NCBI RefSeq assembly: GCF_030684315.1 | Contig: NC_081375.1 | Location: 37,757,828-37,821,827 of the forward strand | Length of the DNA stretch: 64,000 bases | Source of the DNA: Stegostoma tigrinum | Lineage: Eukaryota | Direction: 5' to 3' | Shown: one piece after another, positions 1,993 to 28,967 of the stretch | Layout of the letters: each line of letters starts with the position of its first letter | How positions within the stretch are numbered: the stretch's first letter is position 1 | The notes under the pieces: model-generated | Database searches by the model: none | What the model was told of the DNA's origin: nothing | What the model saw: only the letters and a program-made list of their open reading frames with translations | Translations under genes and position numbers: made by a program

Positions 1993-2083
1993 TCAGACAC
2001 TGAGTGGCAGCATGCCTGGTGGTGAAGGTGGTGGTGCTGCTGATCCAATTCCTGCAGGTCCTTGGTCTAGACCATTTACTACC
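1993..2083 (-). CDS. NDEL1: NDEL1 terminal coding exon
   Basis: gaatatag|G GTA GTA AAT... gives (G)VVNGLDQGPAGIGSAAPPPSPPGMLPLSV-TGA; the GMLPLSV end is diagnostic of NDEL1. Confidence 0.96.
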
Positions 2084-3678
2084 CTATATTCAACAAAAAC
2101 AAGATATGAAATAGTTTCATGCAAAGTGATGACAGTAGCTAGTAATTTAGATGTTCCAGCATTCACAATAGGAACATGAAATAAGGAGAACTTCTCAAAT
2201 CATCAAGTCCACTCTTAGCTCTGGGTTCAGCAGAAAATTTAAATTATACAGACTAATCAATTTGCTTGTTCTTGTTTCTTAATGGTTCTAATTTTGGCTA
2301 TTTAATTTAACTCCATACTGTTTCTGCTTTCTGCACCATTATCGGGTCTTGAAAACTGCACAAAAACTACAAATGACAACATTTTCTTATAAATTTAAAT
2401 AGCTACCAACTGCAACTGAAATTATATATGTGTTTTGCATAGCAATTGCATCAGAGCAATGTGATTTTTAAACCTTAGTTGCCTTACTACAATATTACGG
2501 ATGGATTCAAAGCCATTTATTGTCCAATTTGGAAATATTTTATAAAAATAAAAGCTAACACACGATGACTGGAATTCCCTCAAGTTGCCTGAAGTTTAAG
2601 GATTGACGAAGAGTTTGCTTTCGATAGGCGTTTTAGAAAAAGGAAATAGCAACATTCGTTATAAAAACCACTGATGATAATATCAGCACTAGAACAAACC
2701 ACTAATGATCATTCATACAGACAACTGATTCATTGCAAAATTACATAATGCATTAGTTACTTCTGGAATGTATACAGTTTTTTAAAAATGTGAACATGCA
2801 GATCAGTAGCAAATGCACAATTTACTGCATTTTATAATATATGCACATATTAGTTGTGGATTTAAATACAGCCATGCCTCAGCATATAATATAAAAAAAA
2901 GAGACAAAACAGCCAGATAACTGCAAAAAAATTGTACCATTGGTATGAACCATTCTTATGTTTGCTTTCGACCACTAACTCAATTTTCCTTTATTTAAAT
3001 AGTCAAGTTTTAGTCTGATAAATTTTCCATTTAGTGATTAGTTGTTCAAATTGATTATGCTGTTGCAAAGCTTAGCTCAGTGCACTAAGCTTTCACTGAG
3101 TACTTCTGCATACATTTTAAGAGTGTAATTTTGATTATTTTTTCATTCACTGTATCACTTAGCCAAGCAGGCTTGGTATTGTGCAGATTTGGCACTCAAC
3201 CAGAAAGGGCAAGGTTGGAAAGAAAAATCTACTCACTACTCTAAAATGTGTTTCTACACATTTGTTCTTGTAAACAAACTCCTCGTTAAGGTACATGTGA
3301 ACAGGCATTCTGTAGCGCCTCCACCAGTTTAATAGGTATTATATTTTTACAGTTCTGCAGCACAAAGCTGCATAAATGTTTAACTGCAAAAAAAGTCAAC
3401 AAAAAGATGAAGTCCACAGATCATTGGGCAAGCCCTATACATTGACTGTAAAAGCATAGAGTGAAAAATTAACAGACACCAATAAAAGCATTATATTTTT
3501 AATATTATACATCCAGCATTTTAATCTAGATTCTTACAAATTGACAGAATACCAAATTCCCCGTGCAGTTAGTGGAAATTCAGCCTAAATCTAGTTGTTA
3601 ATCCTGTTTTCAATTACATCACAATTTGTTGCTCACATGCAGGTGATTACTCGAAAGGAATACAATAAAATGAATTAC

Positions 3679-3713
3679 CCATGATAAACTTGGTGAAAAA
3701 GACTCTTTCTTTT
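3679..3713 (-). CDS. NDEL1: NDEL1 35-nt alternative cassette exon (FMGQ-type isoform, C-terminus ...DKGKERVFFTKFIMG*)
   Basis: tcttttcttttatcag|AAAAGAAAGAGTCTTTTTCACCAAGTTTATCATGG|gtaatt. Resembles the mammalian NDEL1 alternative end GQEKVIFPTLFMGQ (recalled, not aligned). Confidence 0.85.
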
Positions 3714-6189
3714 CTGATAAAAGAAAAGACATACTGAAATCAAATTTAAACACATGCGGATTTCATGTTGAACTCTAAGCCAGTCTCGGGTGGTTTAAAT
3801 GCTTAAATCATTCTCCTACTTAAAGCTAAAATCAGATAATTGTTCAACTGATTACACCTAACTGAACAGGTTGGAAAATATTGCAAGTTTTTTAATGTTT
3901 AGGAACTGAAATTTGTGGAACAATGCAAAATGCTGCCCTACATGTATACCAAAATTACAGGAATCAGCAGTTTGACATAAATGAAAGAATGCCAGAGTGG
4001 ATCAGACTGACAGCACAATACAATTTAATACTAGTTTATTAACCTTTCTTTGGATTTCAACTCTTTACTGGGGAGTATGCTATTTTGCCAATATTCTTAC
4101 TTTTGAAGAGGTTGACTTCAATTGAACTAAAAAGTTTCAAAATGTTCACAGTTCATCAGTACCTCTCAAAAGATTGTTCACATTTGAGCCCAGATGCCAA
4201 GTATGGACTAGATATTTGCATGTGCAGACTGCATTCTAAACTAAATTTCTTCTTATCATACCTACATACTGATTTCATGCACGAATCATTAGATAAAGAA
4301 ACAGGCGTGGCATGCTAGCAGCTTAGATCGCTCCCTGACTTGGGCCACCACTAATAATTTGAAACTCATTGAAGCTACCTAATCAGAGGCCACACAAATT
4401 CAGGATCAAATCTGGGATTTTGCTGTCTAAATATTATGACAGCTGGACATGCTATACATCACGAGAAGCAATTAGATTTAAAAGGCTTCTTTTAAGTTTT
4501 GTTAGACAATGGTACTAAAATATAGCAAGTTAGAAATTCAGTGAAGCTAAACTAATTTCAAACAAACCATTCAATTGTACTTCAAGGCTTCACAATTTGG
4601 AATTTTCCCCCTAATTTACTTAGGTTTTTAAACTTAGTGATCAAAAACTAGTAACTCCCCTCCTTGTAACTAAATTACTTCTGTAAATTCACAACATGCA
4701 GAAGAATAATTACATGAATTCATACGCAAGAGATCAGTGGCCCCCAACTTTCTAGCCGATAGCAGCTGTAGGTTTGGGAAACATGCAGTTTAAAGAGCCT
4801 CGTTGAACTTCTGGTGGGTATGTGTGAATCACAGGATACCACAATGCAGAAGACCATTTGGTCCATCCAGTCTGCACTAACCCTCTAAAGAGCACCCCAC
4901 CCAGATCTATCCACAGCAAGTAGTACACACTGCTGCTGTGTGGAGGAATGGCTTTTAAGGATTACGTTGCCCAGGAACGGTATTAAAGTTTATTGACATA
5001 TTGGATCTGCATTCATCCACGCAAGTAGTGGGCATAACATCATACTCTTGACATATGCCCTGAAGACAGTCGGCAGGCTTTGGGCAATCAGGAAATAGGT
5101 TACTCACCACAGGATTCCTCGCTTCTGACCCGCTCTTATAACCCCCCAGAATATTGTTACTGTGCAACTGGGTGACGGCAACACCACTGAATATCAAGGG
5201 ATGAGGATGGTCATTGCCTGGCACTGTGTCACATGATTATTACTTGCCACCTTTCAGTCTAAACTTGGATATCATCCTGGTGTTGTTATATTTCGTCATG
5301 GACTGCTTTAGTATCAGAGTCATCACAAATAGTGAGCATCCTCATTCCTAAGCTTGTGATGGAGAGATGGTCACTGATTAAGCTGCTAAGGATGGTTGAA
5401 CTGCAGACATGACTGACCTCCTAAAACCAGAACCATCTCCCTTATGCGCTAAGGTATCACTTCAACCCAAAAACTGGAGAGACTGCACCCCTACCACCCA
5501 CCAATTCCCAAAGGGCTTCTTGAGGAAACTCATTCAAATGTGGCCTCGATATCAAGGGCAGTCCTCACATCCCCTCTGGAGTTCAGCTTTTTTTTGCATC
5601 AAAGTTACAATGTGGTCTGAAGCCGACAGCCCCTGGTGGAACCCAAACTGAGCATCAGCGAATAGGATATTGCTAAGCAAGTGCTGCTTGATAGCACTGC
5701 TCATGATTGATTTATCAATTTACAGACTAATAGACTGATGAAGTGATCATTAAGTTTTACTTGTACTGCTTGTGGTGTGCAGGAGATGCTAGGCCAACGT
5801 TCCACATCGTAGGGGAGATGTTCCATCAGGATGCAATGATCTAGTGATGTTGTTACGAGAATATTCACCCAGAAACTTGGCTCATGCTTTTGGGACCCAG
5901 AAATACCTAGAGTTAAGAATCTAATAACCATGAAACTACTGCCCACTGTCAGAAAAATGAATCTGGCTCACTGACGGATAAGAAATCTGCTATCCTCACC
6001 TGGTCTGGCCTACATGTAATTCCAGAGCCACAATGTGGTCGACTCTCAAATGGCCTCTAAAATGGACTAGCAAGCCACTCAGTTGTATTGTGATAATACA
6101 ATTACTTTAAAAAGGTGTACTTGGTCTCAAACTTTGTTCACTTTTAGAAGGACAGAGGTGCTGAATGGTCTGCTCAAAGCCAATGAACA

Positions 6190-6385
6190 GCTTGAGAGGT
6201 CTTGGAGTAACAGTGTGGAGCTGGAGGTACACAGCAGGCCAGGGAGCATCAGAGGAGCAGGAAAGCTGACACTTTAGGTCAGGACCCTTCTTCAGAAATC
6301 AGGGAAGGGGGAGCGAGCGAGCTCTGGAATAAGGTGGGGGGGGGGTGGGGCAGAGGAAGGTAGGTGGGATAGTGACAGGGTCTTG
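6190..6385 (-). mobile_element. Old PLE 3'-end fragment
   Basis: Reverse complement of the PLE 3' end, including a degenerate hammerhead motif at 6268-6295. Confidence 0.7.
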
Positions 6386-6660
6386 GTGAGGTCTTGGGTT
6401 TTTCTTAAGTTGGAACAAATGACCCCACCCATTCAGGCTAGGTCTAACTCTCAGAACCAGGAATTTTAGTTTTCGCTTTTAGCAGTTGCTGGGATAGGGA
6501 ATTATAGTAAAAGCAATTCTTTTCTGTTGTATTTTAGCTTTAGTGCAAAAAAAAGTGTATTTTGTTTAAAATCAAGTAGTTTGACCACTTGAATTGCATC
6601 TAGAATGCAACACTTTACACCGACCTTTAAAGTGAGGAAAAAAAAGTTAGCATCTAGGCT

Positions 6661-8639
6661 TCCTTCCCAAAATCCACAAACCTGCCTGCCCCGGTCGACC
6701 AATCGTCTCAGCCTGCTCCTGCCCCACCGAACTCATCTCCACCGATCTGGACTCCATTTTCTCCCCCTTGGTCCAGGAACTCCCCACCTACGTCCGTGAC
6801 ACCACCCACACCCTCCACCTCCTCCAGGACTTCCAATTCCCTGGCCCCCAACACCTCATCTTCACCATGGACGTCCAGTCCCTATACACCTGCATTCCGC
6901 ATGCAGATGGCCTCAAGGCCCTCCACTTCTTCCTGTCCCGCAGGCCCGACCAGTCCCCCTCCACCGACACCCTCATCCGCCTAGCCGAACTCGTCTTCAC
7001 CCTCAACAACTTCTCTTTTGACTCCTCCCACTTCCTACAGACTAAGGGGGTGGCCATGGGCACCCGCATGGGCCCCAGCTATGCCTGCCTCTTTGTAGGT
7101 TATGTGGAACAGTCCCCCTTCCGCACCTACACAGGCCCCAAACCCCACCTCTTCCTCCGGTACATTGATGACTGTATCGGCGCCGCCTCTTGCTCCCCAG
7201 AGGAGCTTGAACAGTTCATCCACTTCACCAACACCTTCCACCCCAACCTTCAGTTCACCCCTGCCATCTCCAGCACATCCCACACCTTCCTGGACCTCTC
7301 AGTCTCCATCTCAGGCAACCAGCTTTTAACTGATGTCCATTTCAAGCCCACCGACTCCCAAAGCTACCTAGAATACACCTCCTCCCACCCACCCTCCTGA
7401 AAAAATTCCATCCCCTATTCCCAATTCCTCCGCCTCCGCCCCCACGACAAGACATTCCACTCCCGCACATCCCAGATGTCCAAATTCTTCAAGGACCGCA
7501 ACTTTCCCCCCACAGTGAACGAGAACGCCCTCGACCGCGTCTCCCTTATTTCCCGAAACACGTCTCTCACACCCCACCCCCGCCACAACCGCCCTAAGAG
7601 GATCCCCCTCGTTCTCACACACCACCCCACCAACCTCCGGATACAATGCATCATCCTCCGACACTTCCGCCATTTACAATCTGACCCCAGCACCCAAGAC
7701 ATTTTTCCATCCCCACCCCTGTCTGCTTTCTGGAGAGACCACTCTCTCCGTGACTCCCTTGTTCGCTCCACACTGCCCTCCAACGCCACCACACCCGGCA
7801 CCTTCCCCTGCAACCGCAGGAAATGCTACACTTGCCCCCACACCTCCCCCCTCACCCCTATCCCAGGCCCCAAGATGACATTCCACATTAAGCAGAGGTT
7901 CACCTGCACATCTGCCAATGTGGTATACTGCATCCACTGTACCCGGTGTGGCTTCCTCTACATTGGGGAAGCCAAGCGGAGGCTTGGAGACCGCTTTGCA
8001 GAACACCTCCACTCAGTTCGCAACAAACAACTGCACCTCCCAGTCGCAAACCATTTCCACACCCCCTCCCATTCTTTAGATGACATGTCCATCATGGGCC
8101 TCCTGCAGTGCCACAATGATGCCACCCGAAGGTTGCAGGAACAGCAACTCATATTCCGCCTGGGAACCCTGCGGCCTAATGGTATCAATGTGGACTTCAC
8201 TAGTTTCAAAATCTCCCCTTCCCCAACTGCATCCCTAAACCAGCCCAGTTCGTCCCCTCCCCCCACTGCACCACACAACCAGCCCAGCTCCTCCACTTCA
8301 CCCACTGCATCCCAAAACCAGTCCAACCTGTCTCCGCCTCCCTAACCTGTTCTTCCTCTCACCCACCCCTTCCTCCCACCCCAAGCCGCACCCCCATCTA
8401 CCTACTAACCTCATCCCACCTCCTTGACCTGTCTGTCTTCCCTGGACTGGCCTATCCCCTCCCTACCTATCTTCTTTTCTCTCCATCTTCGGTCCGCCTT
8501 CCCCCCCTCTCCCTATTTATTCATGAACCCTCACCCCATCCCCCTCTCTGATGAAGGGTCTAGGCCCGAAACGTCAGCTTTTGTGCTCCTGAGATGCTGC
8601 TTGGCCTGCTGTGTTCATCCAGCCTCACATTTTGTTGTC
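6661..8639 (+). mobile_element. Penelope-like element (Neptune-type), 5'-truncated, copy 1
   Basis: RT motifs LPKIHK..RPIVS, MDVQSLYT, GVAMG, RYIDD; CxxxxCxxC linker (CNRRKCYTC); GIY-YIG domain VVYCIHCTRCGFLYIGE..R..EH. One stop at 7398-7400 and a small deletion. 13-bp TSD TAGCATCTAGGCT at 6648-6660 and 8640-8652. Confidence 0.93.
8548..8575 (+). ncRNA. Minimal type I hammerhead ribozyme motif in the PLE 3' region
   Basis: CUGAUGA-A-GGGU(CUAG)GCCC-GAAA-CG-UC: both core boxes are intact, stem II is present, and helix III is replaced by palindromic ACGU. Confidence 0.75.
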
Positions 8640-8729
8640 TAGCATCTAGGCTATTTCAGTATATTTTGAGGGCCTTGAGTCTGGTCCATAACAGTATCAA
8701 TCACTGAAGTCTCAACAAAGAAATGAAAC

Positions 8730-9380
8730 TGGATAGACCACTTGGCATTGACAGAGGCAGTGGAAGTGACAAGAGAAACAGCCCTGCTGACCCTGTAAAG
8801 TCCTCTTTACTAACATCTGAAGCTAGCGACAGAATTGGGAGAGCTGTCTCACATAACAGTCAAGGAACAGCCACACAGTCAGTCATTTTCACAGAATCAT
8901 AATGCCCCAAACACTACCATCACCTTGCCCCACAAGGAGAACATACCCACATGTGGCGGCACAGTGGTATACAGTTGGAAGAGTGTTGCCCTGGGATTCA
9001 TCAACATTGTCTCCGAGCCCTCTGAATTCTCATGGCTTCTGGTTAAACGCGGACACAGAAAGCTCCTGCTGATTACCACATGCTGCCCCTCCTCAGTTAA
9101 TGAATCAGTAATTCTCCATGTCGACCAACACTTGGAGGAAGCACTGAGGGTGGCAAGGGCACAAAATGGCTTGGCAGCAGCACTACTGATTAAGCTGGTT
9201 GGGTCCTACAGGGCATAGCTGCTAGACTGGGTCTGCAGCAGGTGATGAGGGAACCAAGAGGGGAAAACATACATGATCTGCCAACTATTGATTGATCTGT
9301 CCTTGACAGCATTGGTTGCAGTCCCAACACTCAGCCGTTGTGGAAACAAAGTCCCACCTTCACATTAAGAGTGCCCTCCA
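8730..9380 (+). mobile_element. Degraded LINE apurinic endonuclease region
   Basis: ORF 8835-9218 (GGTVVYSW...LLLITTC..LEEALRVARAQN) is APE-like. Related antisense pieces appear at ~4960-5830 and ~10520-10645. Confidence 0.55.
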
Positions 9381-9849
9381 TTGTGATGGGGTTATTCATG
9401 AAATCTCCTTTCAGTGAGTTGTTTAATTGTCTATCACCGTTTGTAACTAGATGTGGCAGGACTGTAGAGCTTAGGTCTGATGCATTGATAGACAAAGCTA
9501 AGTGATTGCACTATCAGCACTGCTAGGCTGCATAGTTACTGAAGGTCCATGCATGTCAATCACCATGCCAATGCTGTTTCCAGTACAGACTAACAGTTTG
9601 AGGTCCGCACAAATGAAAACAAAATTAGAGGGAACATAATTGATCACTTGCTGCTTGGCACACACAAGCTAGTCCTGTACTATAGCTTCAGACTGACACT
9701 TAAGTTTTCGGCACACTTGGTGCTGCTCCAGGCGTGGAGTAGGGGATACGCTGGATTGAGAGGCTGTTGATCGTATGGGTTTGCAATTCCAATTCTGATG
9801 GATGAAAGTGCCTCAGGGATGCCCAATGGAGGCTATTTTCAGTGTGAAC

Positions 9850-10505
9850 GAAAGAGAAATATAGCACAGGAACAGGGTCTTTGGCCCTCCAAGCACCATG
9901 CCCTAACTAACCCTTTTTAAGAAAAAAAAACCTCTGCCCTTATCCCTCTGTTCCCTCCTTACTCATGTAACCATCCAGATACCTCTTAAATATTACCAAC
10001 ATGTCACTTCCACCACCTCTTCTGGGCAGTGCATTCCAGGCTCCTACCATTTCCTGCATGAAAAACTTTCCCTCACACATCTCCCTTAAACTTTCTCAGT
10101 CTCACCTTCAACCTGTGTCCCCTTACAATCGGAACCTCAACCCCGGGAAAAAGGCTCCAACTATCAACCCTATCTATGCCTCTCAATTTTGTAGATAGTT
10201 ATCAGGTCTCCTCTCAGCCATCGTCTTTCCAGTGAAAACAATCCTGGTTTTTTTATTTAAAAAATTCACTTTTCCTCATAGCCAGTGCCCTCAAGACTAC
10301 ACAACATCCCGGTGAAACTTCTCTGTACTCTCTCCAAAGCTTCCACGTCCTTCTGGTAGTGTGGCGACCAAAACTGCACACGATACTCAAATTCAGCCTA
10401 ACAAAGGTTTTACATATGAGCAACACAGTTTAACAACTCTTGTACTCCACGCCCCAGCCAATGAAGGCAAGCATGCCACTTGCCTTCTTAATCATTTTGG
10501 CCACC
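9850..10505 (-). mobile_element. CR1 LINE 3' fragment
   Basis: Diverged match to the 39.0-39.6 kb CR1 3' end, including the tail. Confidence 0.7.
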
Positions 10506-10649
10506 CATGAAGACAAGACTTGCTCTAAGGACTGTATGGCTGCCACTATGATTGATAGTTATAGACAGATGCATCTGTGAAAGATAGATTGAGGAGAACG
10601 ATGTCAAATATGTTTCTCCCTCCCACTCGCCCCTGCCACCACCATTGTC

Positions 10650-13508
10650 AGTTTCTCTACCACTTAAAGACCCAGTCTATCATTTAGAATTTGATCAGCT
10701 TGGTAGTACGGGCATTTCAGCCACTCTGTGGTGGACATCCAGAAAACATGCTGCACCTTTGCCAACCTTAGTACTACCTCCAAGTGATGCCCAACGTAGA
10801 AGAGTGCTGGGTCATCAACCAAAAATTCTAAAACTGATCGGGTGGTTAACACTGCTTTTAAATTCTCAAATGCCTCCTGGCATTGTTCCGTCCACTCAAA
10901 TTTTGAGTTCTTCAACAAATCCATCAACGGTGCCACCATATTACTACTTTGATACAAACATCCGATAGAATCCAATTTAGTCCAAAAAACTGTAACACTT
11001 CTTTCTTCAAGGATGGTCTTGGATATTCCTCTATGGCTTTCTCCTTCACGTTCCTCAGTGTCATCCTTCCACACCTGATGTTGGGTCCTAAGAACGTCAC
11101 TTCCGCCTTTGCAAATTCTGTCTTTGTTCAATTTATGATCTCCATAACTTTCTTTGCCTTGACATCCCTAATGGAATTACCTTCAGAAATCTGGCAGAGA
11201 GCATCAATTATAGTTAGCGAATACTTTTGGTTTTACGGAGGGGACCTAGACAATCATAACCCATGTGAAAGGTTGTTCAAATGCAGAAATTGCCAAAGGC
11301 ACTGGTTTTATTACTGCCTGTAGCTGCCTTTCCATGTGACACTCGTGACAGGTGCAGCAAATTTCAACCAGATCTTAAGTAATCCAGGCCATAGAAAGGG
11401 TTCTGCCTCTTCACACGAGACCTCCTCACTCCTACAGGTAATTCATGTGCTACCAGCATTACTTCCCCTGTGTGCTGCCAACAATACCATCTGTTGAGCT
11501 TCTGCCCATTTCTCCTCTGCACTAACCTGCCAAGTCTCCATTTCCACCTCAGGATTCTATCCTTAAGGTAATACCATTATGGCATATATTCTGATTCCTT
11601 TTCTGAGTAGACTTCAATGGTATAAATCTTTTGTTTCATCTTTTTGTTGCAACTCCATTAGTCTTTCAGAACAAAATACCTCTGCCTGATCCTCTACCTG
11701 CTTTGCTTTCTCATTTACCATTTCATCAAAGTTTCAGCCAACTCGACCTCAACTCCTTCATCCTTTAACTTCTGACTGAGATCTCATCACCATAGTCTGG
11801 AAAAATTCCAGGGTATTTTTCTTTTAATAGATCAGTCCCCTGGTTTTCTTTTGGCTTCTCTATTACGATGGGCATTACTTCCATCTTTGATGCGGCTAGG
11901 GTGTTCTAAGAACAAACTACATTCCTGGAATAGCCACTCTTTCAATCACTCCCACTGTCACTCGCCCAGTCTCAATTGGACTTTCTAGCCTTATCGTAAC
12001 AGGGGAACACCAAATCTTCCTCCATTTATTCCACAGATTACTACACTTGGGTAACATTTCAGATGGGGTCCAAATATTTTCATCTTACTATTAGAGACTG
12101 ACTAGCTCCTGTATCTGTCGATATTGTAACTTCTTTGCCTTCTCTCCCTGTTCTACCTGAGTAAACCTTACCCACAGACATGAAGCCTTTGAAGAGATCA
12201 GGCAACATCTTACTATCCAGCCCATGCCTAGGCTGTACACTCTCCCACAGCTCACCTTCTCTTGGGATTTCCTTCACCATCTCAACTTAGCCCAATGTTT
12301 AGCCTTTTTAAACCACATCCTTTCCCCCAGTATCTTTCTTAAGCCACCTGCACTGTGCCTTAATGTATTGCCCTCTAGTACCGTCAAAACATCAGAGGCT
12401 TTTCACCCTCTTGGGTTTCTTTTCTCATACGTGGTAAACTGTTCCTAACGTGATCTACTTTTTATATTTCAGTGAAAGATCTCACCGTTTCCCCAATTCC
12501 TATCCGTCACAGAATGAAATTGCTGTCAGAAGCCATATTTCGATTTATGCACTAATGTGTATTCATGCACCATCTCTACAGCTCTTCTTTCTGTTCCTCA
12601 ACAGGAGTTAAAACAGCAAGTTACGATCATTTCTGGAAGTGAATTTTTGAACTCCTCCAGCAGAATAATCTAAGATCCTCATTCATCTTTTCTGTCTTTG
12701 ATGCTCTCGGCCATCTATCCAAGTTGCTATGTCTAATTCTTTCAAATTCGACAAGTCTGACCTGGTTCCTTTATGAACTGTCGTCTCTGTGCTTCTGGTG
12801 CCGATTTGTAGGCACTCAAAATAGCCTGACCTACTTCTTCATATTCTCCTGACACCGCTGCAAACACCTTACTAGCCCCGCCTACCAACTTAGTCTGAAT
12901 TAACATTATCCACAGTGTTTCTGGCCAGTTCATCTGTTTAGCCAATTTCTTAAAGGAAATGAAAAAGGTTTCTAAATCTTTTTCGTCAAATTTTGGTAAT
13001 GTTTTGACATATTTGTATATATCCTTATCAGGGTGTTGGCCACAATGAATTTGCTTATGCTCACTTAATTTGTACTTTTCCTTCCACCATTTGAAGTATT
13101 TTTGCTTCAAGTTCCAACTCTAACATTCTTCTCTTTTTCTCTTTCTTACTCCACTGCACTTGCCTGTTTCTCTGGTATACCTAAATGCTTGACTAACTCC
13201 TTTACAACTTCAGCTTGCCTCTTATCCCTAGTTAAACCCAATTCTAGCCTATTTGCTAGGTCGAAAAGTGCGTCCTTCGCGTCTTTCTAAAACTTTCTTG
13301 GCAAATTTGAGAAGCATCTTCTAACACCAGAACCTCTTTAGCAATGTTAAGAGCCATTTCTCCTACTTTTAATTTAACCAACCACAAATAACTGAAACTA
13401 CACAGATTTTCCACTTTTCACCTAAGCTTTATTTAAAGATCTGGGATACTAGCTCCCAAGTCCATTTAAACCATCCAAATCCATTCAGATCCCAGATGAA
13501 GCCCCAAC
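10650..13508 (-). mobile_element. Gypsy (Gmr1-like) LTR retrotransposon internal region, degraded and internally deleted
   Basis: Gag (LPKFDEKDLETFFISF..MNWP..LIQTKLVG, 12742-13110); protease DTGASQS (~12100); integrase Zn-binding remnant (AHELPVG..WPGL..CxxC, ~11330-11450) and core start (DCLGP..LTIID); then RT/RNase H tail (FAKAEVTFLG; FEWTEQCQEAFENLK). PBS TGGGGCTTCATCTGGGAT (tRNA-Pro-like) at ~13489-13506. Confidence 0.85.
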
Positions 13509-14331
13509 TGTTACGAAGGAGCAGTCAACCCACCTCCTCTGATAACTAAAACCAAAACACCCAGAAAAGCTTGCCTCACCTCGCAAACTTTTAAAGGAGT
13601 GGTTAACTCAAAGAAATCCCTGATACTCACTTCATAATCAAGTAAATACATCTGATTAACTCAATTCACAAAACTAACAAACTGAACAATTCCCCCTTAA
13701 CTACTAACTATTCCCAAATAAAACAAAATTCTAACAGCATGCTGTTCCAATAGATACATATACCACTTAAATAAGACAGATTAATAATAAAAAAAAGCAA
13801 AGCTTAAATCTCTCAAAATTATAGCCAGGATCTGTTTTCTAAAACAATGCTTTCTCCACTGTCTTCCAGTCAGGAACGCCTTCCCCCATCAAATATTAGC
13901 TAATGGGTGCAGTGTCCTTTATTTAAATGGCGTTTACTCTAAGATCTTAGGAGATTTCTGGAAGAGCTTGTAATTTTCTCTTAGAGAAGATGCCTCTTGG
14001 GGGCTGTTCTCTTAACAGATGGCAGTTTGCTCTCGAACTGCTTTTCAAATGCCTTCTTTTATATCCTTGTTGACCCATTTATTTCTTACAATGGTGTTGG
14101 TCTGAGGTTGTCAAAATCACCAAATTTAAATTTAATTGGGTTTTGGTATCCAGGGTCTGGTTTAAGTTAATTGGCTAAATTCAAAAACCTGTCATCTTGG
14201 TAAAATTGTTGCTTTGCCTGCAAGTAGTATAGGCTTTTGATACAATGTTTCAATTTCAAGAATTCCCAGTGCATCTGCTGCGGCCTGCAGATATTTTTAA
14301 TATCTCCAAACACCTTTTAAAAGGGATCACA
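13509..14331 (-). mobile_element. Putative 5' LTR of the Gypsy element
   Basis: Ends ...CGTAACA immediately before the PBS; candidate start TGTGAT at 14331. No second LTR is available to confirm the far boundary. Confidence 0.55.
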
Positions 14332-14772
14332 GCACTTCCTCGCACCCCCTTATCTTTTACAAATTCTAATGTCCTGTCTTCGAGCTCACAAGTACTAGAC
14401 CAACTTCACCAAAGGAAGTTGGTCAACCACACCTCTTAGAAACTCTTTGAAAGAGCTATTCAACTAATTTCTTTCCCCCGTTCCAGTCTCCATGGCCTTT
14501 ATATAGTCTTTTCCCCCACATGTCAATAAATCCCATTTGATTGAATGTTACCACTAAAATCTGTTTACACCATTGTCTCAGGTAGTGTCTTCCAGATCTA
14601 GACAGCTTGCAGCATCAGAAAATGTCCACTGATTTTTCTCCAGATTCTTTTACCAACGTTTAGTACTAGCAAATTTGTCTAAGTGCTCCAGTTCACAAAA
14701 AAGTTTAATTAATTGCTGATTTTTTTTCCCCCCTTAAAGAATGATTAGCACTTGCACATTCTAAATACTTAC

Positions 14773-14924
14773 CCTTTGTCAAAATATGTTGCAAGACCTG
14801 AATTAGAAAACTTTGCACTGTTGACCATAGCAGAGGTACCATTACCGTTCCCTGAACTGTAACTTTTTCGTGTTGCTTGGTCCTTTGCAAAATTTCTGCA
14901 TGCTGCTAACTTTGATTCTAAGGC
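14773..14924 (-). CDS. NDEL1: NDEL1 coding exon 7
   Basis: Hand translation gives [50 protein letters not shown](G); ttcag| ... GG|gtaagt; 152 nt. The ORF track does not show this frame. Confidence 0.96.
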
Positions 14925-16942
14925 CTGAAAAAGAAATCAAGTTAGCTGGAAATAATAAACAAAGAAATTCCACACAACAGTATGAACTAATAAAGGAACC
15001 TCTTCCTAGACTATTCAAGGGGAACTCATGAATTTTCCCTCCCATCCCACCATAAAAATAGCACTGATCTGTTTTGAATGAGCAAACAATTTCAAAAATA
15101 AACAAAACAAACACAGAAACAATGCACAATGATGCTTATGTTTGAAATCTAAAACCACTGACACGTGACAAAAATCAGATCTCTTTCTCAATTGTGGAAG
15201 GGGGAAACTTAAGATAGGAGAATGCCATTTAATCTTTAGAGTCTGTTCTGCCATTGTAGAGATCAAGGCCAATCCATAACCTATCTTCGTCTCATGTCCC
15301 TGAATATGTGGGTAACATATATCTATCAATTTAGAAATTAAAATTAACAACTGACTCAGCATCAACTGTTGCTTGCATGCAAGTGTTCCAAACTTTTATC
15401 ACACTTTCCTTTACTCAAGGAAGGCCAAGCTCTAAATTTTTGACTTTGATCTTGTAGCACGGTTAACCAGGACTTGTATACACCTGCATGACCTCTTACA
15501 ATGCAAGAATAATCTGAAATATAGTAGCTACTGTAATTACTTACTGGCTGTAAAGCAATTTGAGATGGTGATAATGGGAGTATTTTTAGTCTGCTAGATA
15601 CAAAATCCATAACTGCAAGAGACTGAATATTTTTTGTACCAGTCCACCCATCCAATGTTTGGATCTCAGCTGTGTCTAGCTTTTCAATATTGAAAAAGAA
15701 TCCTGACCTGTCCTGTTTAGACAGAAAGTGAATGTCTATATGCTGCAGTTTCATCACTTGAATTAATCTATTAATGTCTCTTTGCAATTTTATGCTTCTA
15801 CGTAAGAGGGAAAAGCATAGGCACAGTGTCCTTCCTGGCCTACAAATAATAAATTGTCTTAACCACCCCTTCCTCCACATCTCCTTATGTGGATTCATGC
15901 TACAGTTCAGATCCATGGTGGGACAAAGTGACTTTTCATTATCAACAAAGCCAAGCATTGTTTACCCTGAAGGTCATGGAAAAATGAATGCAGAGGTTGC
16001 TGTTGAACAGGGACTCTTACAACTTTCTTTCTCCAATTCAGATTAACTGCAGTGTTTTCTTGCCCTATCGAAATGTACAGTATATATCCCTAAATATTAA
16101 AGATTTGCATATTTCAAATGAAAAATGCTCTTTTAAATCTTCCAAATCAGTTTGCTTTACAGGCAACCAGGCCATCTTGGGATTGTTACAGCACAGGAGG
16201 CAGCTATTTCGCCCATTCCGCCTGTGCCAGTTTTCCAAATCAGCATCTCATTTCGAGTCATTCTCCTGCCTTCTCCATGTAATCGTTCCCCTTTGAAAAC
16301 AAACAATGTAATAATTCCATTTGCAATGTGTCTGAACTTACCTCCACCACACTTGGGCTGTGCATTCCAGATGCTAACAACTCGGAATGAAAACGGTTCC
16401 CCTCATATCACTTTTACTTCTTTTATTAATTTAGAAAGAACTTTAAGTCTACTCCCTGTTGTACCACAAACAAGGCTGTAGCTAACTTGAGCACAGCAAT
16501 ATCAGGAAAACAGCAATTAAATTAATGACCAAATAACCTCTCTTTAGTAATGTTGGCAATACGTAAATACCGGGCATTCAGAAATAGTGTGTCTGGCAAG
16601 AGGACCAGTGACAGAGAGCTTGAGGTTATGATGGAGACATTAAGTTACAATCAAGGCATGACCAACACTTAGTATAGGGAATGTTGTACAGTAACATTAG
16701 ACAAGTATCATAGACGGTAAGCATTCAGTTCAGTATTGATTTAAGGAGGAATGCTTCCTAGGATTGTTGCAGAAGCATGTTCTTCCTTATACAAGTGTGG
16801 AATTTTAACGTTTGAACAGCTAGCTGTACTAGTTAACAACTTATGCAAAAGTAAAAATCAGTAAAGAACCACAACTGAAGAGAGGCTAAGAAGAATTTAC
16901 AGAAATAAAGGTTGCAAGTAAGTGATTGGAGATAGTACTTAC

Positions 16943-17034
16943 CCCTACTTTTCTTAAAAGGTCACCAACAATATTTAGTGCAGATATTCTTGCTGATGGA
17001 GTTAATGGCATTGTACCATAGCCATTTTGTACAG
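16943..17034 (-). CDS. NDEL1: NDEL1 coding exon 6
   Basis: [31 protein letters not shown]; tttcag| ... GGG|gtaagt; 92 nt. Confidence 0.97.
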
Positions 17035-19544
17035 CTGAAACAACAAGCCTTAGAATTTTTATACAAGTAATATGGGCATACAGATATACACACACCTGCA
17101 CAAACAGCTAAACTTAAATAGCTCCTGAAACAGTTACTGTCATTCATTTAACCAGTACTTGTTTCCCGCATTACAATCAACTTTTGAACTTTAGTCATTT
17201 TAAACAGCAGACAATTCAATCTTTCAAGCTTTTACTAAATTCTGCTGCCGTTTGGCCCCATACTCTGCTGCACATGAATGGCATTACAAATTTAAGCTGC
17301 ATTTCTTACAGGTAACCTGAATCTATGCAATTCAAGTCACATTGTGTCTGGGCCAGGTGCTTGCAGTCACGTGGACACAGAATCTGACCGAGGGAAAATC
17401 AGATACATGGCATCTCAATTGAGTCCCAAGTTTTTCAAATTTTGCTCTACCTTGATGGAGCAAATGCTGGAATTTTGCATTTCAAAATGGTACCATTTAT
17501 ATCAAAACATTGCCACCTCCAATAACATGGCACCGTGCAGATTCCCCAAAAAGTGGGCACGTATGCCACAGACATGCATTTGAACACCCTTAGTGTCAAA
17601 TCCAAGTTTTGCATCGACTCATTCTAAATATGGGTGTTTCACCAAAAACAATTTTCAAAGGCAAGGCAATGAGAGAACAAAATCCATGTGAAAATACTCA
17701 GATTTGATGTTACATTACTAGTGACAAAGTTCTTAGTGAGGTACCGGCAGATAGCTCAGACCCAAATTTGCGTATGACTTAAACCCAGTATCCAATCAGG
17801 TTGAAGTCTTTTTTAAAAAAGACCATTTCCTCCCTCTATCCTGATGTTAAAAACTAAAAGAGGTGTGTGAGTGCTCCATGTTTGAATAATAGAACATAGA
17901 ACATAGAACAACACAGCACAAAACAGGCCCTCTGGCCCACAGTGTTGTGTCGAACTATTATCCTATAAAGATCAATCTACCCTGTACATCTGAAAATACA
18001 TGTACGTTAGATTTTAAGATCATACGGACAAACGTTTGTAGAGTAGCTGTAAAACTATCATAACGGTGGCAGGCTTTCCTTCATTCATTCTCATTGTTTA
18101 GAGTGCCGGCCAGTGCTGGCAGGCATTTCAAACAGCTGATCAAATTCTCTCCTTCCTCCTCTTTAGTTTCAAAGTCAGAGCAAAACCAGATAAATTTCGT
18201 GAATGGAGCAAAATAACCAACATTTGAGATGCACATAAGCTATGTCCACATGCATATCACAACTCCATACAGAATCTCTGTACACAGAGGACACCACTCT
18301 CACCAATTGGGATAATCAAGCCTTAGTCTTACATCTGATATCCTCAATTTGGAAGACAGACAAAAAAAATTGGTTTCCTATGAACTCTTGCTGATATCCA
18401 AATTGTCCCATGTTGCACTTTTGAACCAAGAACGATAATACAAAAAAGTGCTAACTAAAGTAATGAGAAGGCCTGGAGTTTCTACTTCGTTGTATTGTTT
18501 ACTCCATGCAATTTAAATTTTTAATAATTACAGCCCTATACGTTGATCATTTGTGCCAACGCTCAGGAGAGTGTAACAGTGGTATATGAATGAGTATGAG
18601 CAGAAACTGGAGGTGAAAAAGAAAACATTTCAAAGCAAACAATTTTGAGCATAAATTCCACCAAAATGTAAGTCAACTGAGAATGTGTTACTTAAAACAA
18701 GCACTGAACACACCTTACTCTAAATGATATCCTGTGATCAAACCCAGTTTTACCAAAACTAGGTCCTGTATGAATTAAGTAACACTGATCAATGAATAAC
18801 TCAAGTAAATGCTCACCTGACTACTCTTAGCTTCTCGGATTACTAAACTGAGTACGTATTTTAGATTTGCAAGATTTTACACCACAGATTTGCACTGAAT
18901 GTGTTGATACTTGTACACAAAGCACTTGACTTGCACTTGAACACTGCCAATATCAAAAGTAGATCAATTTATAATTCTACATTGAAACATACTTGAGCAT
19001 TACTGCTGTATCTACTCAACTTTACATCAACATTTAGTTCAATCCCTATGGCTGTCAAACAAATTAGAATGTGTTTGGTCAAGTGATGTGAAATGCATGA
19101 GTAGAATTCCAAGTTCTTAGAGAAGTTGAACAGCACAAAACATGAGTGGACATGTACACACAGGATCCTTTCTGCATTTACATACTTACACATCCTAATG
19201 CTAACCTCAAGATTGAAATGGAATTACAATAGCGTTTAGTTTGTGGAACACTACCAAATTATTTAAGATAGCTCATTAATGCACACATTATTATAATTGG
19301 TTTCTGATAGCTGACTGAAACAGGAGGGGTGTTCCCAAATGTGACTGATTCAAGTTGGTAACCAACTTAATTCCTAAACAAAAATAGAAGTTGCTGGAGA
19401 AACTCAACAGGCTTAGTAACATCTGTGGAAAGAATTCTTACATCAGCTTACTACAAACATAATAAGCAGCCCATACTTATAAATGTATATACACAAACTC
19501 AGAATCAATATTTTGGTGATGCTCCAAAAACTTACAGCACAAAC

Positions 19545-19715
19545 CTTTGGGTGAAGCAAATCCATTGCCAGCAGTTCTTCCTACGGGCGTGGCTGGTAGA
19601 GAAAGGGATGCTTGAACAGCTGTATCCATCTTCTCACACTCCAGTGTTGGTGAACTAGGGGCAGATTTTCTTGTTACTTCCTGCCTTTCCCTTACTGCTA
19701 ATTCTTGACGCAGAT
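19545..19715 (-). CDS. NDEL1: NDEL1 coding exon 5 (phospho-rich linker)
   Basis: [57 protein letters not shown]; ttcgcag| ... AAG|gtttgt; 171 nt. The linker is NDEL1-type rather than NDE1-type. Confidence 0.95.
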
Positions 19716-21359
19716 CTGCGAATATAATCACAGGATTGGAGTTGAACAAAATTTGTGCTAAGGAACAAAAGTCTCAAACATTAATTTAGTATCATAATTT
19801 TAGTGCTAAATGTTACCATAAAGGTTACAACAACTCAGTAACAAACTCATGTGTCCTACGGTCAATGAAATCTCCAAACGGTCCAACTGGAATAGGACCT
19901 CAAGTCACAAGTAGCTGTATCGCTATGTACTCCCTTATAAGTGCAACAAATATTGGCTATTCAAGATTCTTAGTGTAGGATGTGGTGCCTTGTATACACT
20001 ATCGCTAAGATTGGTAATGCAGAATAGCTCAATCCCACTAACCTATCTTTTCTGGCATTCTCAAAAATAGGTGAGTCAGTTCAGTTGTATAGGTGTTTAA
20101 CAATCCCAGGGCATAACAGAACTTGCTTCCTCGAGTGATAAATTTGGTTTCAACAGGAGTACTCATTATTGTCCAGGCAAGCAACAATTGGAAATATCAA
20201 GCACAGGGAGGCCAGTAGTCAGAAAGCAGGCAGCTAGAAACAAAGACGTTTGTTTTTATACTATACCTCATCACATTCCTGCTGGCAGTACTAATGCAGA
20301 ATTATTCCCAAATACAAATATGTTGGATTGAAAATCACTAATTCAGCATATTGGTTGTTTTCCCTTTTGAATAAATGAGTAAAGGAACTTGCATTTATGT
20401 CTCATGAAGAGACATTCCAAAGCATTTCACAATGGAATATTGTTGTGACGTAGGAATTATGTGCCAAAAAAATTAACTTTTGGAATATAGTATGATAAAG
20501 TAGAAAATTCAAATTTACGTATAGAGTCCAAGTAGTGCTGGGGCTAATGTTATTCATAAATTGTGTCAGTATAATAGTTTAACACTCCATTTTAATTCAA
20601 TACTATTCGCCAGTCTTCCTGTTAGGTCTTGTCGACCATGAACTTCCTTCTGACACTTCGACTGTCAGCCTCAGTTCCCTTCTCAAACTACAGCCTGTGA
20701 TATTCTCAGCCTCATTTCCTGCCCTAACTCCTGGCTGCAACTTAACACCCTCTCCCACGAAGCCTTACCTCCTGCCCTTGCTCCCTAGCCCCCTCTCTGC
20801 AGGGCTTGGCTCACTTTAACTTTGCAGGTGCTTCCATCCCTTGCTCCCTGGCCTCTTCTCATCTGTTCTTATTTTAGGTCTTGGCTTTAGCCATTCCTGA
20901 ACTCTAGTTGTCATCCCCATCCAGCAACAGAATGTAAGTCAGTGCAACAGCTCCAGCTGCACTGACAAATTCCACCACTAGATGGGGATGGGTAATTCTG
21001 AAAATCCTGCAAGTTCTGTAGATTTTTAAAAATATATACATAAGCAGTATTTAAGTTCATGATGCATCTTATTTAGCAAGTTGTGTCAGCTAGGAATGCA
21101 CTTTCGTACAGTATTTCAACTTGTATATTGTTTCTTTCTGGACACTAACTATCCCAAGGAACCCAACTCCAAACTTTAACGCCGAATCCTATGGGAACCC
21201 CCAACTCATTTAAAGTCAGGATTTTCAGTAATGTAGCTGTATTGCACTTAGATGGGGAGGTTAAGAAAGTTCCCTCACCCTGAGCTTATCAATTCCACCT
21301 TAAAACTTTGTCTGCATTTAATTGATCCTGCTGAAACACTGCTTTAAAAATGAACACAC

Positions 21360-22734: not shown

Positions 22735-23661
22735 CTGAAAGTAGCCAGCAAAAACAAAAGAACATTCCAAGATTTGATTTGTAATTTAAAGCTTTTAAAA
22801 TCAGGACCACATTTCATGAGCTTATGCAATGCAATTTTCATGAGAATATCACTCTCTCTCCTTTGTGCAAAATAATTCAAATTAGGTCCAATAAAATTAA
22901 TGCACTAGTTCACTAAATCACAATAATTTCAATCAAATAGCCAACAAGCTTTTAAGCCTAACCTAACCACATGATTTGAATTCCAGAAATAATGATCAAT
23001 TCCTGGAACTAACTCCAAAATTATCCAACTTGATCAGCATTCTAAATACATACTTGAGTGACTCAATTATTTTAATGCAAAGATTTGCCATTTTTGTATG
23101 TTACATTGTTTGTAATAGTATGTTACTATTTACTGAACAGAAGATTGGTGGTAGAATGGTTTACAGCATATGGGCTTTTCACTTCTGGGATGGGAATGCA
23201 TATCCAGCCTTCCGTAAGGTAAACACATCTGTTCTCATTTCTAGATGCAAAAATTCAAAATGAAAATAAGGTCGAGACCAAAAAACTCAAATTGCTACAT
23301 TTTGACAAGATCTAACAGCCAGCACATCAGCAGTCTCAAGATGTGCCGTACGGATGGTTGGTAGAGATCCTTTCCAAGTGAAGTAGGAGAAAACACCACA
23401 TTCTCTATTAAAATGTGTCCTTCATCTACGACAGTAAAATTAAACTGAAAATGAGACACGATAGTGATTTTAAAAAAAAGGACCATCAATTTTCCAACTC
23501 CATCGTCTGATTTTAATACCTGGGCTTTCATGGACTGAAATGTTCACGGTTTAAAAAAACCACACCATTTATTAACTAAATAATTTCAGTTGAGGGTGGT
23601 TTTATCATTTTCATCAAATGAGACTGAAATCAGTAAACTGGTACTTTCATTTTGATTGAGG

Positions 23662-24330
23662 GATAGCAAGAACTTCAGATGCTGGAGTCAGAGATATCAC
23701 AGTGTGGAACTGGAGGAACACAGCAGGCCAGGTAGCATCAGAGGGGCAGGAAAGTTGATGTTTTGGGTTAGGACCCTTCTTCATAAATGAAGGGGGTGGG
23801 GAGGGAAACAGGGAAATAATGAGAGAGGGGAGATGGGGCTGGGGAAGGTAGGTGTGTTGGTGATGAATGAGTGCATGTAGGGGAGTGGTGGGGACTGGTC
23901 AGTGGGATGGGTGGGGAAGATAGGTGGGAGAGAAGATGGACAGGTTGTGTCAGGTCAAGGAGGCAGGGCTGAGGGGGAGGGTTGGATATGGGATGAGGCC
24001 AGGGTTGGGGAGATTTTAAAACTGATGAATTCATGTTCAGGATGGGCCGTAGGATCCCAAGACAGAATATATGAGCTGTTGCCCCTATGGTTTGCAGGTG
24101 GTGTCATTGTGACACTAGTCGAGGCCCAGAATGGACATGTTACCCAGGGAGTGGGGGAGTTAAAAATGGTTCATGACCAGAAGGAAGGCTGTGTCATTTG
24201 TTGTGTATGCGGCACACAGATTCTCTACAAAACACACAGTCTCGGAGTCTACACTTGGTCTCTCTGATGTAGAGGAGGCCACATTGGGAGCAGCAGACCC
24301 AGTTGACCAAGTTGGTAGACGTACAGGTCT
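23662..24330 (-). mobile_element. Old PLE 3' fragment (degraded GIY-YIG end, 3' region and tail)
   Basis: Diverged reverse complement of the PLE 3' ~650 nt; degenerate hammerhead at 23757-23784. Confidence 0.75.
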
Positions 24331-25455: not shown

Positions 25456-25810
25456 ATGCTTAAATATATTTTTAAAAGTTTCTAAGAATGGACAGTTGTA
25501 TATTAACGGTCTGATTGGAAAATGGTTTAACAAACTTGGAGTTTGAGGTTGTTGCGAATAAAATTGATAATGGGGAAGCTCGGTGCATACAGTATACTTT
25601 GTTTGCAGAAGTCTCTTGGTAAAGTTCCCCACAGAAGCTTGGTTAACAAAATTAAAACATATGGACAGGAGGTAATGTAGTGTAACGAGTTAAGGATGAG
25701 CTAACAGATAGAATGCTGTAAAACTAAAATGGGTCATTTTCTCATTGGCAAGCAACGATTACTGCAGTATTACAAGAATCAGACCTTGGGCCCAGCTGTT
25801 TACAATGTGT

Positions 25811-27316
25811 CAGAGATAATGGGAACTGCAGATGCTGGAGAATTCCAAGATAATAAAATGTGAGGCTGGATGAACACAGCAGGCCAAGCAGCATCTCAGG
25901 AGCACAAAAGCTGACGTTTTGGGCCTAGACCCTTCATCAGAGAGGGGGATGGGGAGAGGGAACTGGAATAAATAGGGAGAGAGGGGGAGGCGGACCGAAG
26001 ATGGAGAGTAAAGAAGATAGGTGGAGACAGTACAGGTGGGGAGGTAGGGAGGGGATAGGTCAGTCCAGGGAAGACGGACAGGTCAAGGAGGTGGGATGAG
26101 GTTAGTAGGTAGATGGGGGTGCGGCTTGGGGTGGGAGGAAGGGATGGGTGAGAGGAAGAACCAGTTAGGGAGGCAGAGACAGGTTGGACTGGTTTTGGGA
26201 TGCAGGGGGGGGGGGGGGGGGGGGGGGGGAAAGAAAGAGAGAGAAGAGAAGAGAAGAGAAGAGCTGGGCTGGTTGTGATTCCACCAACCTCCGGATACAA
26301 CGCATCATCCTCCGACACTTCCGCCATTTACAATCCGACCCCACCACCCAAGACATCTTTCCATCCCCACTCCTGTCTGCTTTCCGGAGAGACCACTCTC
26401 TCCGTGACTCCCTTGTTCGCTCCACACTGCCCTCCAACCCCACCACACCCGGCACCTTCCCCTGCAACCGCAGGAAATGCTACACTTGCCCCCACACCTC
26501 CCCCCTCACCCCTATCCCAGGCCCCAAGATGACATTCCACATTAAGCAGAGGTTCACCTGCACATCTGCCAATGTGGTATACTGCATCCACTGTACCCGG
26601 TGTGGCTTCCTCTACATTGGGGAAACCAAGCGGAGGCTTGGAGACCGCTTTGCAGAACACCTCCGCTCAGTTCGCAACAAACAACTGCACCTCCCAGTCG
26701 CAAATCATTTCCACTCCCCCTCCCATTCTTTAGATGACATGTCCATCATGGGCCTCCTGCACTGCCACAATGATGCCACCCGAAGGTTGCAGGAACAGCA
26801 ACTCATATTCCGCCAGGGAACCCTGCAGCCTAATGGTATCAATGTGGACTTCACCAGTTTCAAAATCTCCCCTTCCCCTACTGCATCCCTAAACCAGCCC
26901 AGTTCGTCCCCTCCCCCCACTGCACCACACAACCAGCCCAGCTCTTCCCCCCCACCCACTGCATCCCAAAACCAGTCCAACCTGTCTCTGCCTCCCTAAC
27001 CTGTTCTTCCTCTCACCCATCCCTTCCTCCCACCCCAAGCCGCACCCCCATCTACCTACTAACCTCATCCCACCTCCTTGACCTGTCCGTCTTCCCTGGA
27101 CTGACCTATCCCCTCCCTACCTCCCCACCTACACTCTCTCCACCTATCTTCTTTACTCTCCATCTTCGGTCTGCCTCCCCCTCTCTCCCTATTTATTCCA
27201 GTTCCCTCTCCCCATCACCCTCTCTGATGAAGGGTCTAGGCCTGAAACATCAGCTTTTGTGCTCCTGAGATGCTGCTTGGCCTGCTGTGTTCATCCAGCC
27301 TCACATTTTATTATCT
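25811..27316 (+). mobile_element. Penelope-like element copy 2: inverted 3' arm (25811-26278, minus) fused to direct arm (26281-27316)
   Basis: GIY-YIG ORF nearly identical to copy 1. The left arm is the reverse complement of the 3' end. 14-bp TSD TGTTTACAATGTGT at 25797-25810 and 27317-27330. It interrupts an older LINE RT fragment. Confidence 0.93.
26205..26262 (+). repeat. Poly-G run followed by (GAGAA)n microsatellite
   Basis: About 25 G then aaagaaagagaga(gaaga)n, inside the inverted PLE arm. Confidence 0.9.
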
Positions 27317-28967
27317 TGTTTACAATGTGTGTTTGGTTGGAAGGTGCACAAATATAAAAAGTGAGTTAGGTTACTTTAAGTCCCTGAAAGATGACATGCA
27401 GGTGTAGCTTTCCTAATGTCCTGCTATCAGTATGTTAGCCTTTAGCAAGAGTACAGGAGCAGCACAGTCTTGTGTCTGTTGTATGGGAGCTTGATTAGCA
27501 TCTGGGAGTACTGCATGCAGTTGTAATTCCCTTACCTTAGGATGGCTATTAATTGCTGGAGAAAAAAATGCAACAGAGGTTCACCAGACATTTGGCATGG
27601 TGGCTTTAACTTATGAGACTGAGCAAATGGGGACTGTATTTTCTAGAATTTCAGAGTATGAGGGGTAACCACATTAAAACCTACAAAATACCTCAGAGAT
27701 AGATAGAGCAGTTACAGGTGAGATGTTTCCAATGGTTGGAGAATTTAAAATCAGAGACAGACAATTTCAAATTAAGTGAAGCCACTTGGGACTGACAGAA
27801 GAATTTTTCTACTCGCAAGTTGAGAATCTCAAATCTTATCAGGAACTCTGCCATTGAGTATGTTTAAGAGTGAACCTATTTCTTAACATCAATACCATAA
27901 CAAATACCAAGAATAGTGAGGAGAAAGACACAGAAGAAGTGGGTGAACAGCCATTACTGTACTAATTTATACTCATTGAGGCTAAACACCCAATTGCTTT
28001 CTCCATGTTCCTAATTCAAGGACAAGCCAAGGACATATTCTTTTACCTTCCTTTTTACAATGGAGACTATCCTCTAACTTTGTGCCCGTGTCAGTGTCTG
28101 CTTGATGTTGCATCTTTATTATTTTTCTTGTTGTTAATGATAACTTAATTAATTTTCTTTTCACGAGAAACTTTTGTAATTGGCTCCTTTATTCAGTTAG
28201 TGTTGGAGCCTTCAGTGACCATTGCAATTAAAGGATTCCTTCATTTATCTGCAAACTTCCAACATTCTGAAGTTGTAGTCAGTTTCAGAGGAATAATTAT
28301 GGTTGACTTGATAATTCACTATCAACACTGTCCCCTTTGGCTCAAAAATCCACTGCAAAATGAGATTCCTCCTCAATAAGGAACTGTTCAATACTTTGGC
28401 CAGATATATATTTTCACATTACATTGCAAAAGCCTGAAATGTGGTTCCAGGCAGTTAACAGAAAAGAACTGTTGTAGAACATGCTTCTTTAGTCTACTGT
28501 TTTCCCCTCAAGTAAAAGACATGAAGTTGCTTTACGAGCGTTCAGAAGATTGCACCTACTTGAGCAACTTTGTCATGAAAGCCTTCAGGCTTGGAGGACG
28601 CATTCCAAACAATATGCACGTTAGTACAATAAATCTACATTCAGCTAGCTACAACTGAAAATAATTTTAACTGTGCTCAGCAATTTAAAAAAAAATTTAG
28701 TACAGTGCTGGCTGTGCTTGTATCCAAGACTTCACAGGAAAGCCCCCTTGATTATTCATGTCAATTTGTTCAACTTGGGTAACTGCCTATTAACGGGGGG
28801 CTCAATCACCCTTGTTTGCAGCTGGCAAGCAATTTCAAAACAGTGCTAGAAATCCAGGACGAGGTTATCCAGCAGCGTAGGAAAAGATAGTGCAAAAGGT
28901 GTAGCACGGGAGAAAAGTCTTTGGACGATCAGCAAAAACAAACTGTTTGTCTACAGTATGGGGAAGA

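Follow-up and report, generated by a model that had tools for sequence, protein, structure and literature searches.

The 64,000-nucleotide stretch of Stegostoma tigrinum contig NC_081375.1 analysed here (the window) carries a 5'-truncated Penelope-like element (PLE), with which a second copy at 30431-32314 shares 85% identity. The 3' terminal repeat of the truncated element contains a minimal hammerhead ribozyme motif (Table 1). The protein encoded by the element is up to 90% identical to a predicted protein of the zebra shark and 60% identical to one of the bamboo shark, both of PLE type. As expected for an endonuclease-bearing PLE, the reverse transcriptase (RT) is followed by a C-terminal GIY-YIG endonuclease with a CX2-5CxxC linker, here CNRRKCYTC, and it is by this linker that the type was assigned, since it is described as the mark of Neptune and Nematis elements (PMC8557442). 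Neptune is the likelier of the two because Neptune and Poseidon are the groups listed for vertebrates in the literature consulted. The element is flanked by a 13-bp target-site duplication, a length of agreement reached or exceeded in 2 of 1500 random zone pairs. With its truncated start and in-frame stop it is a dead copy carrying one hammerhead. The insertion features known from PLEs, namely 5' truncation, inverted 5' arms and an optional tail of 30-40 bp, are all found here. The last 30 residues of the zebra shark predicted protein come from a reading frame that crosses the element's 3' repeat and hammerhead, so the annotation has likely mistaken a Penelope-like copy for a gene. Among the 36 long open frames scanned in the window, a search that would miss short exons, there was no host gene.

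Table 1. Features of the element, its hammerhead motif and related insertions in the window. Ends marked + followed by a number are distances in nucleotides from the predicted cut.
Feature	Position	Strand	Evidence or remark
Left copy of 13-bp target-site duplication	6648..6660	+	exact match to 8640-8652
5'-truncated Penelope-like element, Neptune/Nematis type	6661..8639	+	tblastn match to PLE proteins begins at residue 240 of 759
RT part, YIDD at 7161, premature in-frame stop 7398-7400	6651..7400	+	PF00078 E 4.8e-6, below curated cut-off
RT thumb, CX4CxxC linker 7809-7835, C-terminal GIY-YIG endonuclease (YIG at 7959)	7401..8345	+	PF01541 E 0.006, below cut-off
Stem I, 5' arm CU	8546..8547	+	pairs with 8576-8577
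Core box C3-U4-G5-A6-U7-G8-A9	8548..8554	+	sequence
Unpaired A between A9 and G10.1, min-HHR hallmark	8555	+	sequence; Discussion and Fig. S3 of PMC4209133
Stem II, 4 bp GGGU/GCCC, G10.1-C11.1 first, loop CUAG	8556-8559/8564-8567	+	sequence
G12-A13-A14 (GAAA 8568-8571), palindromic A15.1-C-G-U16.1 (8571-8574), C17	8568..8575	+	sequence, descriptor match
Stem I, 3' arm AG	8576..8577	+	alternatively pairs with C3-U4 in predicted inactive hairpin
Stretch past cut site to the element's short 3' end, 64 nt	8576..8639	+	bounded by target duplication
Right copy of 13-bp target-site duplication	8640..8652	+	exact match to 6648-6660
182-bp insertion, terminal repeat only with broken hammerhead, ends +62	6206-6387	-	10-bp duplication
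Composite insertion, inverted 5' arm ends +102, forward arm +65	25797-27330		14-bp duplication
Composite insertion, inverted 5' arm ends +96, forward arm +67	29666-32331		14-bp duplication

The sequence and coordinates of the motif (8548-8575) are exactly those of the original prediction, a note on this DNA made from its letters, and the eight related motifs that it listed elsewhere in the window are all found where it had placed them. Its classification as a minimal type I hammerhead in a Penelope-like 3' repeat was also right, as judged by a descriptor match and by the top rank that the copy takes in a custom covariance model (CM). C15.2-G16.2-U16.1-C17 occupies 8572-8575 on the forward strand, with the predicted cut after 8575, and stem I consists of U8547-A8576 and C8546-G8577, the third pair being a U-C mismatch. 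The features that Cervera and De la Pena (2014; PMC4209133) describe for the minimal hammerheads (min-HHRs) of PLEs are found here: CUGANGA and GAAA boxes, a UH cut site, an extra nucleotide before stem II, a G10.1-C11.1 pair, a palindrome at 15.2-16.2 without a closed helix III, a short helix I closing the motif, and a place on the sense strand of the terminal repeat (pseudo-LTR), 3' of the frame that encodes RT and GIY-YIG; there too most copies are solo and derive from truncated elements. The canonical type I hammerhead, with an Rfam score and a 6-bp helix I that supports loop 1-loop 2 contacts, is a different object, as helix I here is 2 bp. Nor is the locus a non-LTR retrozyme, in which at least two consecutive non-coding units would each carry a hammerhead: a single hammerhead lies between the target duplications, and the nearest one on the same strand is 18.7 kb away and broken.

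Two features of the motif had been flagged as unusual, and both are in print. A nucleotide separating position 9 from 10.1 is, together with the G10.1-C11.1 pair and the palindromic 15.2-16.2, a published min-HHR feature, with the consensus CUGANGAH (PMC4209133), and the unpaired A at 8555 is invariant in all nine window copies. A stem I of about 2 bp is at the short end of the range, but rows with a 2-bp helix I are present in the published alignment for D. virilis, Culex and Oikopleura (PMC4209133), and stem I is exactly 2 bp in 21 of the 109 relatives introduced below. The motif is thus of a kind already known. It stands apart from the min-HHRs of that study in combining a 2-bp stem I with a 4-bp stem II, both at the short end, and in the full core-hiding hairpin predicted for it. 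There is no shark among the 56 rows of Fig. S3 of that paper, nor in its Table S1, and a literature search (subscription journals and repeat databases lay outside its scope) found no published shark PLE hammerhead. The locus contributes an instance from a carpet shark to a class of motifs known since 2014, which as it stands is of little significance.

When both strands of the 64 kb were searched with the full min-HHR descriptor, the copy at 8548-8575 was the sole match, and any match at all was obtained in just 2 of 300 dinucleotide shuffles of the window. A looser pattern, CUGANGA..GAAA..UH, gave 34 matches where 13.4 were expected and was discarded as too loose for use. The Rfam hammerhead models found nothing in the window, in 8300-8800 or in 8520-8610, either at the gathering score or at E values up to 10. 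This miss is uninformative, because none of 20 well-paired relatives matches at the gathering thresholds either. Relatives were collected by scanning metagenomes with a pattern made from the focal motif, which gave 122 loci from 2 of the 64 parts of the collection and one further locus in viral contigs, with 109 distinct motifs whose core and extra A match by construction. Stem I was left unspecified in the pattern, and it is at least 3 bp long in 67 of the 108 relatives with full flanks, against a mean of 10 and a maximum of 22 in a swap control. A PLE protein match on the same strand lies within 300 nt at 13 of the 123 loci. A CM built from 38 of these non-shark motifs ranked the focal copy first (40.2 bits, rough E 5.5e-10) and recovered eight of the nine window copies at E < 0.01; its core was fixed by the search pattern made from the focal motif, so that core matches arise by construction. 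Copies of the shark family itself were found neither in the viral contigs nor, with a pattern anchored outside the motif, in the metagenome contigs. By estimate the min-HHR architecture is present in about 5,800 metagenome stretches, and at many loci another copy lies no more than 300 nt away in the opposite orientation.

Covariation across copies, as claimed in the original prediction, was overstated for the window but is strong among the non-shark relatives. Of the eight pairs compared across the nine window copies, a single one has both partners changed, namely the second pair of stem I (CG in five copies, UA in three, UG in one); the two proximal pairs had both been said to covary, but all nine copies have the same proximal U-A. 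Stem II cells are paired in 94.4% of cases across these copies, with no stem II pair changed on both sides, and the contrast between GGCCC and GACCC that had been taken for stem II covariation is a one-sided change from U-G to U-A. The resulting score of 0.306 is reached by 21 of 500 shuffles, and covariation within the window is weak, amounting to one event between two subfamilies. Among the 38 relatives, by contrast, seven of nine pairs change on both sides and the score is reached by none of 500 shuffles; this set comprises the motifs of 26-29 nt among 112 with 7-nt flanks, longer ones having been excluded for the sake of a simple alignment.

None of the eight other copies in the window is an intact variant: each is broken in the core, in stem II or in the palindrome, predominantly at CpG positions, and ten CpG-type transitions are distributed over five of them. 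The copies of subfamily B share changes at N7, in loop II, from a U-G to a U-A pair and from a C-G to a U-A pair; within the core it is N7 that distinguishes the subfamilies (U, A, G). The palindromic loop II CUAG was considered as a kissing site and rejected, as it is not kept in subfamily B. Across the motif the focal copy represents the majority of the five subfamily-A copies, with every catalytic position kept. Non-CpG changes among these five affect 5 of 140 cells in the motif, three of them through one deletion, compared with 12 of 315 in the downstream flank, and 4 of 20 CpG cells in the motif are changed. The motif decays like its flank among subfamily-A copies, as expected of dead copies. 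The copies at 23757-23784 (-) and 60903-60929 (+) both have A at position 7 and a change of C3 to A, the latter of which would disrupt the pair between C3 and G8; the shared change arose either twice independently or in a sub-lineage whose non-standard core did not prevent it from spreading.

The element ends found in the window fall into four short ones, at +62 to +67 from the cut, and two long ones, at +96 and +102. Two end classes 30-40 nt apart, together with inverted arms, constitute the published 'tail' pattern of PLEs (PMC8557442, PMC11167929), and the two composite insertions look as if both target strands had been primed at different start sites. In the long-tail copies 25811-25912 (-), 29680-29775 (-) and 23653-23756 (-), pairing is predicted between a GAUGC about 17-23 nt past the cut and a GCAUC of the tail. 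The prediction applies to both subfamilies and points to a candidate signal near the two sites at which reverse transcription starts.

Secondary-structure prediction favours an inactive form of the motif. In the predicted hairpin CUGAUG (8548-8553) pairs with CGUCAG (8572-8577) over 6 bp, at -11.0 kcal/mol compared with -3.1 kcal/mol for the open-core fold, and a 32-mer is predicted to fold 81% into this core-hiding structure, which takes the same AG that stem I needs. Forcing the core open costs about 8 kcal/mol in each of four sequence contexts, and the predicted pair probability of stem II is 0.999 in the 32-mer and 0.03 in a 120-nt context. The burial of the core is to be read as a prediction, since nearest-neighbour energies take no account of the tertiary core or of Mg2+. 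The complete six-pair hairpin is found in 8 of 114 relatives, three of its six pairs being inherent in any such motif, and it is incomplete in subfamily B. The modelled active dimer lies 17.5 kcal/mol above two inactive hairpins, and on this model the active fold may never be reached. It had been suggested that activity may need a partner RNA or distal pairing; four helices of 5-6 bp are predicted around the motif, none of them adjoining stem I, and no conserved distal pairing that would extend it was found. The description of the ribozyme as probably dimeric agrees with its kind, which is thought to work as a dimer, but dimerisation is impossible in cis at this solo repeat. ACGU is unable to close a hairpin, so helix III could form only between two copies, and the copy at 8548-8575, which lacks both a partner in cis and an upstream repeat with a promoter, is likely inert. 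Since the element extends for 64 nt beyond the predicted cut, the RNA from which 6661-8639 was copied was uncut at 8575/8576.

We therefore interpret the locus, with a probability of about 0.8, as a dead, truncated PLE whose 3' terminal repeat retains an intact minimal type I hammerhead, likely inert in this copy. While the parent element was active, ACGU palindromes would have joined two such motifs into a dimer and the RNA would have been cut after GUC, likely with the aid of the element's own protein. In this subfamily the AG past the cut could shift by two bases, leaving stem I for C3-U4, and close the 6-bp core-hiding hairpin, so that naked RNA, predicted to be off by about 8 kcal/mol, would need both a partner and a chaperone. 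Cleavage would then trim tandem transcripts upstream of the next unit. Single min-HHRs did not cleave and dimers cleaved slowly or weakly (PMC4209133, with which the review PMC6765202 agrees), and the dimer-cleaving hammerheads with short stem III of Lunse, Weinberg and Breaker (as reviewed in PMC6765202) are likewise of type I, tied to PLEs and palindromic in a very short stem III. The hammerhead of the Anolis carolinensis Poseidon element PAc (Frangieh et al. 2024, PMC11167929) also lies in the repeat, with element ends past the cut at two sites 30-40 nt apart; it is reported to cleave only with the element's protein present and to be dispensable for insertion in vitro, reverse transcription starting at two internal sites past the ribozyme. 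PAc is a Penelope/Poseidon element in which the frame starts inside the ribozyme, whereas the shark element has the CX2-5CxxC linker of the Neptune/Nematis type and its 5' end lies outside the window; protein-assisted cleavage is a feature of PAc, while the shark motif is known here from sequence. The non-LTR retrozymes (bioRxiv 10.64898/2026.07.22.740005) share a type I hammerhead derived from PLE repeats and are reported in one cartilaginous fish, but they consist of non-coding units in tandem, each with its own hammerhead, while the present motif is solo and attached to an RT-endonuclease remnant.

A possible trace of cleavage comes from the contigs of run X10, which cover most of the stretch (210,564 records compared). 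Among 12 joints listed out of 131, four begin at the 3' end of the element and two of these land exactly on 8576, one from 8633 with three added letters (depth 255) and the other from 8640 with three added letters (depth 91). By a hand estimate, two of four joints falling on one pre-named site among some 340 would arise about once in 2,000 to 20,000 cases, for rows that were selected and do not show strand sense. It is tempting to suppose that these joints, from an element end at about +61 to +66 onto the first base past the cut, record ribozyme cutting in vivo, and that the AG slip is an off-switch flipped by the element's protein; reverse transcriptase would have run off the ribozyme-cleaved 5' end and restarted at an internal start site. 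We regard this as a tentative reading, possible rather than probable. As an alternative, an identical joint at 8576 results when one element inserts into another at a hot spot of the endonuclease. No joint or second copy starting at the cut site was found in the 123 fetched metagenome and viral loci, one of which has a second copy on the same strand with an edge beyond the reach of the exact-match method. What PLE hammerheads contribute to transposition is unsettled, the motif being dispensable in vitro and no Anolis RNA ends being reported at the cut (PMC11167929). If the joints at 8576 belonged to a genome-wide pile-up, this high-copy family would give direct genomic evidence of in vivo cleavage, and its copy ends could show whether PLE hammerheads cleave during real transposition, a question that in vitro work has left open.

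Other explanations for the motif have to be weighed against this interpretation. The hammerhead likeness might be chance in an ordinary retroelement 3' end, as would suit a short motif that Rfam does not recognise, but the rarity of descriptor matches in shuffled sequence, the position of the motif where min-HHRs are published to sit, and the covariation of the same architecture across unrelated hosts have largely refuted this view already, and its probability is close to nil. It would also be conceivable that the motif is an active monomeric ribozyme, its stem I extended by distal pairing, that cuts a host transcript at the locus. It is, after all, the only unbroken motif among the nine copies, and a 6-bp helix between 8523-8528 and 8613-8618 can be drawn. 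That helix, however, has a probability of about 0.4 and needs letters specific to this copy (in run X10, 96-97% of the depth reads otherwise at 8523-8524), ACGU cannot close helix III within one molecule, single min-HHRs are reported not to cleave (PMC4209133), and the long frames scanned, short exons aside, include no host gene to be cut; we consider such activity highly improbable.

More serious is the idea that the hammerhead descends from an active one but no longer cuts in the shark lineage, being kept as a protein-bound RNA signal or hitch-hiking beside the reverse-transcription start sites. The 2-bp stem I, the complete six-pair core-hiding hairpin that is so rare among relatives, and the change of C3 to A common to two window copies would all be explained in this way. 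Published work points in the same direction, as hammerhead mutants were not impaired in insertion in vitro and no Anolis RNA-seq reads start or end at the cut (PMC11167929), and one of nine Xenopus retrozyme dimers was cleaved in vitro (bioRxiv 10.64898/2026.07.22.740005). Against a loss of cutting, the focal copy has the majority sequence of subfamily A and keeps every catalytic position, stems I and II stay paired despite the differences between subfamilies, and two contigs join at the exact predicted cut. We therefore judge it unlikely, and prefer the reading of an intact dimeric hammerhead that would have cut in the parent element.

Among the differences listed for the run X10 contigs, those within 8548-8575 are C>T at 8567 and G>A at 8568 and at 8573, at 12-15% of depth, again in keeping with dead copies. 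In contigs of two other organisms, position 8546 is T in 93-99% of depth. Elsewhere in the window, decayed hammerhead-like relics of a third repeat family lie back to back on opposite strands at 52948-52977 (-) and about 53017-53120 (+); both are absent from the list in the original prediction, the former has a 3-bp stem I and a CM E value of 4.2, and a tail-like fragment of similar appearance is present at 19393-19429 (-). Remnants of other retroelements include an LTR-retroelement-like RT/RNase H region at 10664-11167 (-), with a weak match to PF17919, and a LINE-like RT at 39729-40528 (-), which matches PF00078 with an E value of 3.6e-18.
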